Sequence record: NC_010930.1 | Length of the DNA: 5,206 nt | Origin: a plasmid | Strand: one strand, 5' to 3' | Shown here: in pieces, positions 269 to 4,899 of the stretch | Position numbering within the stretch: position 1 is the first letter of the stretch | Layout: each line of letters starts with the position of its first letter | The notes under the pieces: generated by a model | Database searches by the model: none | Told to the model about the DNA's origin: nothing | What the model saw: the letters and a program-made list of their open reading frames with translations, nothing else | Program-made: the position numbers and the translations under genes

Positions 269-313
269 TTTTTTCCTTTCCAGTTACGCTCTCTACCAAA
301 CAGATAGAGGAAT

Positions 314-329
314 CCCCGCTGACGCGGGG
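314..329. repeat. Short GC hairpin: CCCCGC, loop TGAC, GCGGGG.
   Basis: Perfect 6-bp inverted repeat with a 4-nt loop, read directly. It sits in the leader/promoter region of the minus-strand gene that starts at 268. Confidence 0.4.
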
Positions 330-349
330 TAAATGGCCGGGGCGCGGGA

Positions 350-405
350 TTGCACCCCCAGCAAGCTTCATATGTAATATTACATCAGTAATGGTACATA
401 GGTAA
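350..405. promoter_or_regulatory. Divergent promoter region with a perfect 14-bp palindrome, ATGTAATATTACAT (372..385), overlapping candidate -10 hexamers on both strands.
   Basis: Plus strand: TTGCAC (350..355), 17-nt spacer, TGTAAT (373..378), upstream of the ORF that starts at 435. Minus strand: TTACCT (revcomp of 400..405), 17-nt spacer, TAATAT (revcomp of 377..382), upstream of the gene that starts at 268. Both -10 candidates lie inside the palindrome, so it is a plausible operator. The -35 matches are weak. Confidence 0.35.
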
Positions 406-1663: not shown

Positions 1664-3305
1664 CCTTTTCCGGTTGTTCAGCATTCCATTTGTCATCGAA
1701 CGGAACCGGCTTGGCAGTACGCGCGACGACCTTCATATCCTGGCGTAGGTCTTCCCATTGGTAGCGGATACCCTGTATCTCGGTTTTCTGACGTTTGGCC
1801 TTGCCTGCCTTTGTTCGGTCGAAGCTGATGTTCCAGAGTCCGTTATCGTCAAGAACCTGTGCTTTGTGGCCGGGCAGGAGTTCGCGGAGCTTGTCCCAGT
1901 CGTGGTCTTCGATGGCGTGTTTGGCCTGTGCGAGAATCTTCGGGTTGTGTTTCAACGCCTCGTCGTATGGTGCTGATTCGATTCGCCATGCCATGACGGC
2001 GCGTTGCGTCTGTTGCTCGATGATTTCATTATCGTTGAGGTCATCGATACCGAAGTGTTCCTTAAGTCCGGGCGACCAGCGTATGCATTGGCGACCTGAG
2101 GTGAAGGAGACGTATTCAATCCACTTCCGACGTCGTTCGCCAGCCGACATCTTCAACGGGCATTCATCGTCCAACAGCTGGAACGGGTTGATATGGGTAT
2201 CTCCGTCACCCTCGTGACCGTCTTTCACATCACCGCGCGCCATCTCGCCGGACACCTCCCATGTGTGAGAGTCTTCCGCCTTGTCGTCCTGAAACTTGCT
2301 GATGTAGAGCGCGATGACCTTGCCGTGGTCATCTACCCGTTGCAGATCCACTCCGTGGGCTTCGCTGGGTGTGATGACCCATTTGCGTTGCCCGTTGGCG
2401 GTCCTGCTTTCGTTCCACTCGTCGGCCACCTTATTCAGGTTCTCCGCCCAACGGGGGAACAGCCATGCGCGGAACCGTTCTAGCATGTCATCGTCCACCT
2501 TGGTTTCAGCGAACAGAAGCACGTGCAGGTGAGGGTGCCAGCCGTCCTCGTCGCCCAAGGTGATTTCGACGCTCTTGATATTGCCGATAAGTCCGAGCCG
2601 GTTTCGCCATTTGTCCCAAGGTTTGCCGCGAATGACCTTGCGGAAGCCGGAGAGCAGGGCGTCAAGGGTGAACGCCAATGGCATGGTGCCATCGTGCCTC
2701 AGCGTGAGGGTCATGAAGAGTATGCTTCCGCCGTTTTCCAAGTGCTTGTTGACCGCCGTCTGAATCTCGACCGAGCGGCGTTGGCGAATGGTGGCCGAGC
2801 AGGTCGGGCATGACCATATCGAGGAGCATTTGACCACACCGGCGTAGGAGCCACGGCCTGATTCGTTCAGCCTGAGTTCGGCGTGCCCGCCATGACGATA
2901 CCGGCGGTGTTCCGCAGCGACCTTGACTTTCACGCCTTTCGCGTATCCGTTGGCGCGTTGGCCGCAGTATGCAGGTCGTCGTACCTCGTCGTACACCCGT
3001 CGCATGTTCGGCTTCTTCTTGCCTGATTGTCCGGAGTCGATGAACGCTTGCGACCACAGCAGATTCTTACTTTTCCAACGTCGGATATAACGGCTGATTT
3101 CAGCGTTACGGTCGTACTTTTCACCGTTCTTAGCAGGGGGGGTTACGAATTTAGTATTATCCCTAGAGCCGCTTCGCGGCTTCGCGGCTTCGGACTGCGC
3201 GCCGGCTTGCGCCTCTGCTACGTCCGCGCCGCTATCCGGTGCGTCCGGTTTATGTGAAGACGTTACCCGCTCTTTGGGTGTCGTCCTCTGAGTTGCTATA
3301 CTCAT
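1608..3305 (-). CDS. rep: Rolling-circle replication initiator (Rep) of HUH superfamily I type, pIJ101 / pSAM2-RepSA-like. 565 aa from ATG 3305; the ORF track starts it at TTG 3323.
   Basis: Motif 1 FMTLTL is at nt 2717..2700. The HUH motif WHPHLHVLLF is at nt 2537..2523 for HPHLH. Motif 3 ALYISKFQDDK has Tyr at nt 2306..2304. The spacing between motifs (about 60-70 aa) is typical. A Cys cluster CSSIWSCPTC (nt 2828..2799) lies just upstream of motif 1. All internal plus and minus ORFs are shadows. Confidence 0.88.
   Translation of the reverse strand: MSIATQRTTPKERVTSSHKPDAPDSGADVAEAQAGAQSEAAKPRSGSRDNTKFVTPPAKNGEKYDRNAEISRYIRRWKSKNLLWSQAFIDSGQSGKKKPNMRRVYDEVRRPAYCGQRANGYAKGVKVKVAAEHRRYRHGGHAELRLNESGRGSYAGVVKCSSIWSCPTCSATIRQRRSVEIQTAVNKHLENGGSILFMTLTLRHDGTMPLAFTLDALLSGFRKVIRGKPWDKWRNRLGLIGNIKSVEITLGDEDGWHPHLHVLLFAETKVDDDMLERFRAWLFPRWAENLNKVADEWNESRTANGQRKWVITPSEAHGVDLQRVDDHGKVIALYISKFQDDKAEDSHTWEVSGEMARGDVKDGHEGDGDTHINPFQLLDDECPLKMSAGERRRKWIEYVSFTSGRQCIRWSPGLKEHFGIDDLNDNEIIEQQTQRAVMAWRIESAPYDEALKHNPKILAQAKHAIEDHDWDKLRELLPGHKAQVLDDNGLWNISFDRTKAGKAKRQKTEIQGIRYQWEDLRQDMKVVARTAKPVPFDDKWNAEQPEKATPPVSPPLALLDLTESA
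3274..3302 (+). promoter_or_regulatory. Candidate plus-strand promoter antisense to the rep start: TTGGGT (3274..3279), 17-nt spacer, extended -10 TGcTATACT (3294..3302).
   Basis: The hexamers and the TG extension are read directly. The predicted transcription start is near 3309, right at the rep start codon (3305..3303) on the other strand. Confidence 0.25.
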
Positions 3306-3308
3306 GGT

Positions 3309-3413
3309 TGTAACGACTTTCAAGTTATGGCCGATAGCGCGAAGTTTGGCGACAGGGCGCTATCAGCGAGCTTCAGATTCCCCGGGGTTCCAGCCCCGGG
3401 GTTTCTTCTTTCT
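3309..3413 (+). ncRNA. Candidate small antisense countertranscript (ctRNA) covering the rep translation-initiation region and leader.
   Basis: It would run from the candidate promoter above to the hairpin plus T-tract at 3380..3413, giving about 100 nt. It contains an internal 8-bp-stem hairpin, GATAGCGC (3333..3340) paired with GCGCTATC (3357..3364), with a 16-nt loop. The overlapping plus ORF 3304..3489 is not credible as coding. This architecture is typical of ctRNA copy control in rolling-circle plasmids. It is hypothetical here. Confidence 0.2.
3380..3413 (+). terminator. Intrinsic-terminator-like element on the plus strand: tandem palindromes CCCCGGGGTT-CCAG-CCCCGGGGTT, then TTTCTTCTTTCT.
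   Basis: Two self-complementary CCCCGGGG octamers (3380..3387, 3394..3401) can pair as an 8-bp stem with a 6-nt loop. A T-rich run follows on the plus strand only. The minus-strand side is A-rich upstream and not T-rich downstream, so it would not terminate tra-to-rep transcription efficiently. Confidence 0.4.
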
Positions 3414-3427
3414 ACTAAACCAACAGC

Positions 3428-4309
3428 CTAAACTACAGGCTTATTATTTGCAATCGCGTCAATGGCAGTCATCGCGTCGTTCTCGCTGATGTAGGCAAAC
3501 CGACACATGGCGGCCTGACCATTATCAAGGCCGATGACCGCGCCACCGGGTCGTGACGTTGGGATATCCAACGGGGAGGGCGAGCCATCAGGCAGATTGC
3601 CCAGCACGGCGCGTGCGGCCTCGGGGGTCGATATCTGGAAGCAGATACGTGCGCCGCAGTTGTCACGGAGCTGGCTTGGCAGGCAGTCGGTCGTGGGTTT
3701 CTGGGTGATGGCGAAGAGCAGGTATCCGGCAGACCGTCCCTTTCTCACGATGTTGGTGGCGGCACCGGTGATGTCCTGAGCCAAATCCCTGAGTTCCTTG
3801 ACGGGGCGACCATCATCGCTGGTCACTCCCTTGGGGTCGAAGTAGGTCTGGCATTCGTCAACGATGATGACTTCAAGCGGTGGCCTCTTATCCGGTGGAA
3901 GATTCCAGAAGTTACTTTCGCCGTAATTGGCTCGCATAGAGGCGGTTCGAGATTTCATATCACGATTGAGATTAAGGATTGCTTCATGTACAAGGTCGAT
4001 GTCATCACGAATGAACGTCGTGGCGGCGTTTTCCGCCCAAGTCCAGTCATCGCCGCCCTTGCCATCGATGATGTGCAGGTTGACCTGACCGGACAAGTAG
4101 AGCGCCAGCACGATAATCATCATGCCAGCGGTCTTGCCGCTTCCGGGTCTTCCACCCACCACAACGCCACTCTGGTTCCTGATGATGATGGACGCGGGGG
4201 AGCCGTCCTCAAGCAAGCCAAACGTAATGCGTCCGGCCACTGGGTCAAACGGCAGAAGCCGGAACTTTGATGGCTCCGGCTTCTGTTGGTGTTTCCATGG
4301 GAATCTCAT
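3428..4309 (-). CDS. tra: FtsK/SpoIIIE-family DNA translocase ATPase, TraSA/TraB-like conjugal dsDNA transfer protein. 294 aa from ATG 4309. It has no N-terminal transmembrane segment.
   Basis: Walker A GGRPGSGKT is at nt 4156..4130 and Walker B VIIVDE at nt 3871..3854. An FtsK-like motor segment follows (AITQKPT...RICFQ). The ORF track begins at TTG 4432, but ATG 4309 has a GGAG SD 7 nt upstream and forms an ATGA overlap with the stop of the upstream gene (4308..4306), so 4309 is preferred. Confidence 0.85.
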   Translation of the reverse strand: MRFPWKHQQKPEPSKFRLLPFDPVAGRITFGLLEDGSPASIIIRNQSGVVVGGRPGSGKTAGMMIIVLALYLSGQVNLHIIDGKGGDDWTWAENAATTFIRDDIDLVHEAILNLNRDMKSRTASMRANYGESNFWNLPPDKRPPLEVIIVDECQTYFDPKGVTSDDGRPVKELRDLAQDITGAATNIVRKGRSAGYLLFAITQKPTTDCLPSQLRDNCGARICFQISTPEAARAVLGNLPDGSPSPLDIPTSRPGGAVIGLDNGQAAMCRFAYISENDAMTAIDAIANNKPVV

Positions 4310-4899
4310 GCGAGGACTCCGATGACAGCGTTGTCGAGTGCGGTCTTGACCGTGGGACTGGTGGAGAGCTGAACGGTGAACAGTCCGGGGTTGGCCGTGT
4401 CCTCGCTGATGGCGAATGACCGGCACCGCCAAACCCTCGCGTTCTGGGTCAGCAGTTCCTTGAGGTGGTCGGGGTTCATGCCCGATTCACCGCCACCGTC
4501 GAACCTAACGAACGTGTCGCCGTCCCGCTTATAGGTGGTGGCCGGAATGGTCTTGGTCTTATCCTCGTCCGTGTAGATTTCGGCCTTGCGGAGCTTCGAG
4601 CAAGTGTTGACGCGATCGAAGCGTGCGACTATCCCCCAGAGGGGAACAAGGCCGACCAAGGCGTTGGACATGCCGGAGCGCAGGGGCTTCCAGAAGATTC
4701 CGGCAACAAGCAGGATTACGGCGACGGCGAGGGCGAGCCAGCCGATGATGTCGGCGTGGAGCATGAACGGCAGGACGATGACGGCCAGCCAGACAAGGGT
4801 AAGCCCCACGGTGCCGGAAACGTCCGGCTGGTTTTTCTTGGCTTCCTGCTTGGCCTGAGCCTTGGCAGTTTCCTGACCAATTTTCTTAAGTTCACTCAT
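4306..4899 (-). CDS. Membrane protein with two transmembrane helices (198 aa), translationally coupled to the FtsK-like ATPase. Candidate membrane anchor or Spd-like partner.
   Basis: ATG 4899 has a strong GAGGAGG SD 9 nt upstream. The N-terminal tail is Lys-rich. Two hydrophobic helices follow: TVGLTLVWLAVIVLPFMLHADI and IGWLALAVAVILLVAGIFW. A soluble C-terminal domain of about 110 aa comes next. The stop TGA 4308..4306 overlaps the tra ATG. Confidence 0.7.
   Translation of the reverse strand: MSELKKIGQETAKAQAKQEAKKNQPDVSGTVGLTLVWLAVIVLPFMLHADIIGWLALAVAVILLVAGIFWKPLRSGMSNALVGLVPLWGIVARFDRVNTCSKLRKAEIYTDEDKTKTIPATTYKRDGDTFVRFDGGGESGMNPDHLKELLTQNARVWRCRSFAISEDTANPGLFTVQLSTSPTVKTALDNAVIGVLA

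Follow-up and report, generated by a model that had tools for sequence, protein, structure and literature searches.

The subject of this analysis is a stretch of plasmid DNA of 5,206 nucleotides (nt) (sequence record NC_010930.1; the whole stretch is called the window below) and, within it, the short non-coding spacer between tra, which codes for an FtsK/SpoIIIE-like protein, and rep, the gene of the Rep protein. Both are on the minus strand (Table 1), in the order tra then rep, as they are in pASV479 and pCIBb1. The spacer is the sole non-coding block conserved across the plasmid family (BLAST) and measures 109-123 nt in the five closest lineages (the window, L011, L012, L013 and L015; numbers of this kind designate the loci compared). 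An initial annotation, made from the sequence alone, had placed a candidate antisense countertranscript (ctRNA) here. On the evidence set out below, it is probable that the plus strand at 3274-3413 encodes a cis-antisense ctRNA of ~100 nt that would limit Rep synthesis and hence plasmid copy number.

Table 1. Features of the window, numbered from its first letter (SL, stem-loop; SD, Shine-Dalgarno sequence; bp, base pairs)
Feature	Position	Strand	Remarks
Candidate -35 element TTGGGT	3274-3279	plus	inside rep codons 9-11; 3 of 6 consensus positions
Extended -10 element, TGc + TATACT	3294-3302	plus	overlaps rep codons 2-3 (AGT ATA)
Predicted ctRNA, ~100 nt	3309-3410	plus	both ends predicted
SL0, 5' hairpin, 5-7 bp	3310-3328	plus	loop CUUUC 3317-3321
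SL1, recognition hairpin	3330-3367	plus	stem 3333-3340/3357-3364, loop 3341-3356
SL2, intrinsic terminator	3380-3413	plus	9-bp GC hairpin followed by UUUCUUCUUUCU
Probable rep SD, GAAAG	3317-3321	minus	11 nt before the ATG
Candidate rep promoter	3453..3425	minus	-35 TTGCAA 3453..3448, 17 nt, -10 TAGGCT 3430..3425
Candidate double-strand origin, GCTCTAGGGATAATACTAAATTCGTAACCCCCCC	3160..3126	minus	inside rep, in its poorly conserved N-terminal part; AT-rich island
rep, Rep_1 (PF01446), 565 aa	3305..1608	minus	start codon 3305..3303
tra, FtsK/SpoIIIE-like	4312..3428	minus	stop at 3430..3428; directly upstream of rep
orf124, orf71, orf197		minus	orf124 wraps the sequence ends
orf153, HTH_17 gene		plus	

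The promoter elements proposed in the initial annotation, i.e., TTGGGT, a 17-nt spacer and TGcTATACT next to the complement of the rep start codon, are all present as described. The window group, L013 and L015 share the TTGG of the -35 element, which the pCIBb1-like lineages lack; beside an extended -10 the element is probably dispensable. The sequence TGNTAYACT occurs once in the window, against 0.09 occurrences expected. Its TAYACT part, mostly with TGn before it, adjoins the complement of the rep start codon and is shared by 11 lineages (the window group, L013, L015, L020, L017, pCIBb1, L154, pASV479, L147, L149 and L181). It is written by AGT-ATA or AGT-GTA, which are the rarest synonymous codons of this plasmid (AGT provides 10% of Ser, ATA 9% of Ile and GTA 14% of Val codons). 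Its offset from the ATG is 0, 3 or 6 nt, with one extra codon between ATG and AGTGTA in pASV479 and L147 and two in L181, and the hexamer is retained throughout. This persistence, despite rare codons and shifting offsets, points to selection on the DNA and not on the N-terminal peptide. By sequence criteria there is, then, a predicted promoter opposite rep and near its 5' end.

Folding of the plus-strand RNA 3309-3413, which had been suggested as a check, gave -43.7 kcal/mol versus -31.8 +/- 3.3 in shuffled sequences (z = -3.6), with none of 200 shuffles as stable, and resolved three hairpins. SL1 (3333-3364) is the further stem-loop that had been noticed between promoter and terminator, to which SL0 must be added. 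The CUUUC loop of SL0 is complementary to the rep SD, and the hairpin, with its G.U pairs, is predicted for the plus-strand RNA only (seven G.U versus one A.C). The stem of SL1 is formed by GATAGCGC (3333-3340) and GCGCTATC (3357-3364) and is followed in the fold by a 3x3 internal loop and a short upper helix beneath the apical loop, an arrangement that we take to resemble the interrupted upper stem of CopA, the antisense RNA of plasmids R1 and R100. SL2 consists of CCCCGGGG-TTCCAG-CCCCGGGG (3380-3401) followed by TTTCTTCTTTCT (3402-3413). The hairpin with its T-tract lies, as annotated, about 100 nt downstream of the promoter on the same strand (i.e., within the range of 50-150 nt), and it is the top match of the terminator scan in the window, with nine pairs, eight of them G-C, and then TTTCTTCTTT. 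It is oriented for the plus strand only: after the hairpin the minus strand reads AATCTGAAG, with no T-tract, and in all lineages, even the distant L147, L149, L181, L156 and L166, the GC hairpin has its T-rich tail on the plus strand. What is conserved in SL2 is the pairing and not the sequence. The assertion that no protein gene ends there is correct for the plus strand and fails for the minus strand, on which the tra stop is 26 nt from the hairpin. The tail itself is an interrupted U-run, UUUCUUCUUUCU here and UUUCCUUUU at the equivalent positions of most relatives; the sense strand has AAAGGAAA or AGAAAGAAGAAA there, close to where the rep mRNA is predicted to begin, and the interruption is conserved.

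The predicted ctRNA would span positions -4 to about -105 relative to the rep ATG, including the SD. With its start ~4 nt upstream of the ATG it would cover the leader and the SD and not, as had also been proposed, the start codon itself.

Conservation, strand and the recognition loop

Relatives were gathered through protein clusters and profile scans. The former yielded L010 and L011 (Rep identity 95%), L012 and L153 (70%), L013 and L014 (57%) and L015 (56%); the latter added L020 (Bifidobacterium aerophilum), L017 (B. olomucense) and L154 (a gut contig). The nearest named plasmids are pASV479 (B. pseudolongum) and pCIBb1 (B. breve), with 32-37% Rep identity. Megablast of the whole window against PLSDB gave fragments only, and a single-protein scan of genome contigs for close relatives gave no match. 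The antisense module is present in the window, L011, L153, L013, L015, L020, L017, L154, pCIBb1 and pASV479, and promoter, hairpins and U-tract recur as a unit opposite rep in nine lineages with Rep identities of 32-95%. It lies at 3845-3975 in pCIBb1 and at 1975-2100 in pASV479, in neither case annotated; within PLSDB it was found in pCIBb1 only. A covariance model (R1) matches the window at 3309-3414 and the equivalent sites in pCIBb1, L153, L154 and pASV479.

In a MAFFT alignment of nine lineages, 91.2% of stem cells were paired, versus 81.0% in shuffles and 34-45% with slid partners, and 13 pairs had changed on both sides, a number matched by none of 500 shuffles. In SL1, five pairs had changed on both sides and 95.7% of cells were paired; its stem is wholly different between lineages (GATAGCGC, AGCAGCT, TCAGCGG, CAGCGGT or GCGTGCGGT), while the loop keeps AGTTTGGCGAC. 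As to the strand, the consensus structure holds 25 G.U pairs on the plus-strand RNA versus two A.C (which would be G.U on the other strand), and the plus-strand RNA is 3-6.5 kcal/mol more stable than the minus in seven of the nine lineages. The sense RNA forms SL1 and SL2 too (z = -2.9), as would be expected of a ctRNA target.

The SL1 loop contains the invariant AGUUUGGCGAC, with UUGGCG at 3346-3351. Its 10-mer, identical in the window, L013, L015, L020 and pCIBb1, is the sole non-coding 10-mer common to the family. The UUGG within UUGGCG provides an exposed loop with the YUNR U-turn, the rule given for antisense recognition loops in PMC4485353. In L017 (2940-2965) and pASV479 (L152, 2025-2045) the loop is inverted within an unchanged stem and reads GTCGCCAAAC or TCGCCAAAG on the antisense strand. 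The flip looks recent, since L017 and L020 are otherwise nearly identical in the spacer, and it appears to be a hairpin-mediated loop inversion. It would be harmless to the sense-antisense loop pair because both loops remain and merely swap partners.

Hairpins with the hexamer in the loop also appeared, in a rough survey, upstream of other Rep_1 genes (L128, L143, L134, L139, L029, L218 and L232). In L128 and L143, which are unrelated AT-rich Rep_1 plasmids, they read GCCCATTT-TTGGCG-AAATGGGC with flanking A and T runs; in L150 the loop of the antisense terminator contains CGCCAA. In numbers, 25 hairpin loops with UUGGCG or CGCCAA were counted in 144 kb upstream of Rep_1 genes versus 45 in 817 kb elsewhere, 11 of the 25 coming from the pCIBb1-like plasmids themselves; with related loci set aside, the excess drops to only about twofold and is at most suggestive. 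The hairpin of L232 (1-60), a distant Rep_1 relative with 28% identity, has the same loop (AAGTTTGGCGAC) on a different stem and lies at the end of the contig, upstream of a small open reading frame (ORF) that has a strong SD and is itself located before rep.

Target, proposed mechanism and competing explanations

For the ctRNA to act, its complement has to be part of the rep mRNA. The candidate rep promoter, whose -10 includes the tra stop codon TAG, is kept as TTGCAA/TTGCGA, 16-17 nt and TA(G/A)(G/A)CT in L011, L153, L020, L017, pCIBb1 and L154. Transcription from it would start near 3418 and give a leader of ~113 nt that contains the whole ctRNA complement; only if this putative promoter is used would the full target be within the rep mRNA. 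The promoter scan proposes another pair instead (ATGACT-18-AATAAT at 3472..3443, minus strand). An SD pairs with the 3' end of 16S rRNA, and the GAAAG upstream of rep is conserved in the relatives.

The following sequence of events can be proposed. The extended -10 promoter in rep codons 2-3 would fire away from rep, and the RNA would fold into SL0 with its anti-SD loop, SL1 with the recognition loop 5'-UUGGCG-3' as a YUNR U-turn, and SL2 with its U-tract as terminator. The rep mRNA, which probably starts at the promoter overlapping the tra stop, would carry complementary hairpins in its leader. SL1 and its complement would make the first loop-loop ("kissing") contact, from which pairing would spread until the SD is double-stranded and rep could not be translated; RNase III may also cut the duplex. 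The anti-SD loop of SL0 and the full complementarity over the SD point to such translational inhibition after SL1 kissing. It is also the likelier mode because a pT181-type attenuator was not found: in the sense leader the terminator scan gave no minus-strand terminator at 3306-3370, and there is no U-run, so that attenuation of this type is unlikely. Activation by a pseudoknot of the ColIb-P9 type was set aside too, no downstream partner sequence having been seen (by eye only).

Several points weigh against this interpretation. A generic sigma-70 scan of the window does not list the promoter at 3274-3302, since its -35 matches only three of six positions; within the window alone the predicted promoter is not significant, and its weight comes from conservation. 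AT-rich rare codons right after start codons are common for translational reasons. Searching the whole window on both strands with cmscan against Rfam gave no match at E <= 10, while the same search recovers CopA on R100 at 106 bits; besides CopA (RF00042), the countertranscript families of Rfam presumably include ctRNA_pGA1, ctRNA_pT181, ctRNA_pND324 and ctRNA_p42d. If the rep promoter were downstream of SL1, the ctRNA would be left without its target hairpin. Plasmid ctRNAs ordinarily diverge, which lets them escape incompatibility; an invariant loop is unusual among them and would also fit a protein-binding or nick site. Covariation in an inverted repeat argues for a hairpin and would be the same for action as RNA or DNA and for either strand. 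The arguments for the strand (U-tract, G.U pairs and -10) are indirect, and the strand counts, which lean somewhat towards the strand on which the structure was derived, are supporting and not decisive.

The double-strand origin is likely to lie inside rep, at 3126-3160, and this bears on the reading of SL1. The candidate is preceded by short GC-rich GCTTCGCG repeats at 3161-3185, and the whole region 3126-3185 corresponds to rep codons ~41-60. The DNA motif CCTWGGKA-N17-20-TAACCCCC is conserved in L013, L015, L020, L017, pCIBb1, L154, pASV479, L016, L156 and L166. Its variants are CCTTGGGAAAAGACGAATAAAATAACCCCC in pCIBb1, L020 and L017, CCTTGGGAAAACACTAATAACGCAACCCCCCC in pASV479 and CCTTGGTACATCGCGAACAGTGTTACCCCCCC in L156, with L166 and L016 alike; L147 and L148 have CTCTTGGTACATCGC. 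The constraint is on the DNA, because the encoded peptides differ among the relatives. We take the motif to resemble the CTTG/ATA nick cores of phiX174 and pC194. Other candidates were discarded: the pC194-type core CTTGATA occurs inside genes only and at inconsistent places, and AACTTGAAAG before the ATG is like the phiX174 core but not conserved. No Rep_1 nick core (CTTGATA-like) was found in 3306-3427, and the AACTTG upstream of the ATG is absent from pCIBb1, L015 and pASV479.

Nick sites in rolling-circle replication are typically exposed in hairpin loops and stay conserved within a Rep family while the surroundings diverge (PMC5714925), and SL1, with the only shared non-coding 10-mer in the only conserved non-coding block, has this appearance. 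It could be the double-strand origin, a cruciform or hairpin upstream of rep with an invariant loop nicked by Rep, the other features being incidental. We find this quite improbable. The flips in L017 and pASV479 would shift the nick strand and reverse leading-strand synthesis, L147 and L149 lack the motif in spite of more similar Rep cores (40-42% identity), the motif inside rep is more widely conserved, and the U-tract, the -10 and SL0 would be left unexplained. SL1 was given up as nick site because of the flips, the UUGGCG content, the absence from L147 and L149 and the better motif in rep. The hairpins might instead act in the sense transcript with no antisense RNA at all, SL2 as a terminator of tra lacking a U-tract, or as its 3' stabiliser, and SL1 and SL0 as structure of the rep leader serving mRNA stability or protein binding (e.g., Rep autoregulation). 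The nearness of the tra stop to SL2 and the good fold of the sense RNA agree with this, and a conserved U.G in the outer SL1 stem of the sense RNA (C.A on the other strand) suggests that the sense hairpin matters. However, a sense hairpin is expected anyway of a ctRNA target, all lineages keep the T-tract on the opposite strand, rare codons retain TAYACT at varying distances from the ATG, and SL0 and most G.U pairs exist on the plus-strand RNA only, so that we judge this explanation unlikely.

The location directly downstream of an FtsK/SpoIIIE-like gene, the best-conserved gene of the family at the DNA level, brings to mind the clt transfer locus: in Streptomyces plasmids, the TraB protein reportedly recognises TRS repeats of 8 bp in the clt adjacent to the gene that encodes it (PMC4170104; PMC3218068). 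The conserved loop or the GC inverted repeat might be recognised by Tra in this way, and the orientation of the loop would then be immaterial. Nevertheless, clt loci hold several repeats, whereas the loop motif is single in each plasmid even at two mismatches, and the sole direct repeat is the palindromic hairpin arm itself. SL2 keeps its pairing and not its sequence, UUGGCG/CGCCAA loops are also found upstream of rep in the unrelated L128 and L143, and the promoter and the U-tract would have no role. A transfer locus is thus very improbable. Mere chance, i.e., an unremarkable GC hairpin beside a fortuitous -10-like hexamer, could invoke the number of terminator-like sites in the window (seven versus 4.6 +/- 2.1 in shuffles) and the promoter scan that does not flag the site, but hardly deserves belief when at least nine lineages have kept all parts of the module together, with compensatory changes. 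The ctRNA reading of the initial annotation is strengthened by the recurrence of the module, the compensatory stem changes, the -10 in rare codons and the loop motif, and it stays a prediction from sequence.

The plasmid and its other sequence features

The window is one complete circular plasmid: nine metagenome contigs (5236, 5261 or 5347 bp) encode a Rep protein identical to that of the window, and each of them corresponds in length to 5206 bp plus the assembler overlap and is opened at a different point. The window, pCIBb1 (L151) and pASV479 (L152) have 4.8-5.8 kb and an FtsK/SpoIIIE-like gene upstream of rep, together with a small membrane-protein gene. This layout is that of the Streptomyces-type modules for conjugation of double-strand DNA; the type given by PLSDB/MOB-suite is non-mobilizable. 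A plus-strand ORF at 3304-3489 was discarded as a gene, since a 1-nt indel breaks its frame in the relatives with 95% identity. In RefSeq the rep gene of pCIBb1 (NC_002133.1) starts at 3536 (GTG, 387 aa), 320 nt too late; the ATG with AGTGTA conserved in the family is at 3858..3856, and the ORF is interrupted between 3536 and 3858, either by a frameshift in the old sequence or, as it may be, through mis-annotation. In the re-sequenced record NZ_CP102537.1, rep is annotated under the ctRNA module.

Both pCIBb1 and pASV479 have been used as starting material for Bifidobacterium cloning vectors. The location of the putative ctRNA, its promoter and the likely origin can guide vector builders as to which bases to keep, which to mutate for a higher copy number and which plasmids would be incompatible.

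At 307-334 (plus strand) there is a hairpin, GAGGAATCCCCGCTGACGCGGGGTAAAT, that closely resembles a type I-E repeat of clustered regularly interspaced short palindromic repeats (CRISPR). The adjacent 31 nt (335-365) match, without any difference, spacer 3 in the I-E array of B. longum DS1566 megaplasmid p1, with an AAG triplet similar to a protospacer adjacent motif on the proper side (368..366, minus strand). The spacer match supports Bifidobacterium as the probable host. The CRISPR-like features extend over 307-369 (plus) in the window, 897-1020 in L012 and 1372-2081 in L235. L012 has two repeat units 62 nt apart, together with a second spacer-like insert, of 35 nt, that had no match in PLSDB or the phage set, and L011 and L017 keep part of the protospacer, with the repeat absent. 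The repeat-like unit is possibly a plasmid-borne mini-array, a solitary repeat decoy or the result of repeats captured by recombination at the shared spacer. Close to it, where orf124 and orf153 diverge from an AT-rich promoter region, 372-385 is a perfect 14-bp palindrome (ATGTAATATTACAT), most likely an operator, which includes TAATATTAC, the geminivirus origin nonamer. Between orf153 and the HTH_17 gene, hairpins (899-931, 1040-1066 and 1072-1137), one of which has a perfect stem of 11 bp, cluster with direct repeats of GYGCTACC and possibly form a single-strand origin or an iteron-like site. L012 lacks the part from 1067 onward and carries a ParA gene in its place.

Comparison with known countertranscript systems

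Functionally, the predicted RNA would be a standard plasmid countertranscript outside the curated Rfam families. In a small rolling-circle plasmid, control of rep by an antisense RNA is what one would expect, and the biology is otherwise ordinary; specialists may be surprised only by the likeness of the loop to that of CopA and by its natural inversions. We did not find a description of a ctRNA in the pCIBb1/pASV479 plasmid family, though the original papers on these two plasmids may mention one.

The initial annotation had compared the locus with the pMV158 and pT181 families, to neither of which the replicon belongs: by its Rep sequence it is of the Rep_1 type (pC194/pIJ101-like). RNAII of pMV158 is transcribed in the intergenic region just upstream of rep, ends at an intrinsic terminator and inhibits rep translation, with 48 nt, a single hairpin without U-turn loop and pairing through its 5' tail (PMC4485353). 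The position upstream of rep and the terminator are shared with the window, while the predicted ctRNA of ~100 nt with three hairpins and a YUNR loop, the Rep_1 in place of a Rep_2 protein, and tra in place of the CopG repressor gene upstream are different; a Rep_2 gene, a copG gene upstream and a single-hairpin RNA of ~50 nt were thus not found in the window. The origin of pT181 is located within its rep gene, as is the candidate origin of the window. RNAI/RNAII of pT181 and RNAIII of pIP501 resemble the window in having the antisense RNA within the rep leader. They differ in that they induce a terminator in the sense leader; from SL1 to the ATG, the minus strand of the window has no hairpin with a U-run.

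A system from an Actinomycetota host is that of pGA1, a rolling-circle plasmid of Corynebacterium glutamicum (pCG1 family). In the account given in PMC9592669 (citing Venkova-Canova 2003), a ctRNA from a promoter at the 5' end of rep overlaps the rep start and leader and lowers Rep, and the nick site is within rep, in its 3' part. As far as that account goes, the window has in common with pGA1 the ctRNA at the 5' end of rep, the kind of host and a nick site in rep, if the candidate origin is accepted; the latter is, however, in the 5' part of the gene. Similarity of sequence or structure was not found, since no Rfam family matches the window at the threshold used.

The recognition loop leads to a different set of plasmids. 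The Inc RNA of ColIb-P9 and RNAI of IncB/IncK block a pseudoknot that activates translation of repZ/repA. A complementary downstream partner for such a pseudoknot was not seen in the window (by eye). The likeness is in the UUGGCG loop: the title of Asano et al. 1998 states target recognition by the Inc RNA through a loop with 5'-rUUGGCG-3', and this is the extent of the comparison with Inc RNA and RNAI.

The CopA/CopT pair (R1/R100, IncFII, RF00042) is similar in more respects. On R100, where Rfam locates CopA, its loop is CUCGCCAAAGU, reading ...ACUCGCCAAAGUUGA..., with uCGCCAAAaU as the family consensus; the sense loop of the window is GUCGCCAAACU and the antisense loop of pASV479 is CUCUCGCCAAAGGU, the latter having the 10-mer CUCGCCAAAG in common with CopA. 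Both systems have the hexamer pair CGCCAA/UUGGCG in the recognition loop, a long stem interrupted near the top, an antisense RNA of ~90-100 nt with a terminator, the rep leader as target and, by prediction for the window, translational control as outcome. In contrast, CopA belongs to a theta replicon of Enterobacteria with a tap leader peptide, and no such leader ORF was seen in the window; moreover, UUGGCG is in the antisense RNA of the window and not in the target, where it is found only in the flipped lineages. The failure of the CopA model to match the window indicates that the likeness is convergent or due to a general design rule and does not reflect homology. Tentatively, and with less confidence than in the ctRNA itself, it may be suggested that UUGGCG/CGCCAA is a "fast-kissing" module of general use in plasmid antisense control, taken up convergently by the theta replicons of enterobacteria (CopA, Inc RNA) and by the rolling-circle plasmids of actinobacteria and, perhaps, low-GC hosts, that the inversion in L017 and pASV479 swaps the U-turn partner with no loss of function, and that the invariance of the loop predicts cross-incompatibility or cross-talk among divergent bifidobacterial plasmids. 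The loop shared with CopA, together with its two flips, would allow the U-turn kissing rule to be examined cleanly, by comparison, in bacteria other than Proteobacteria.

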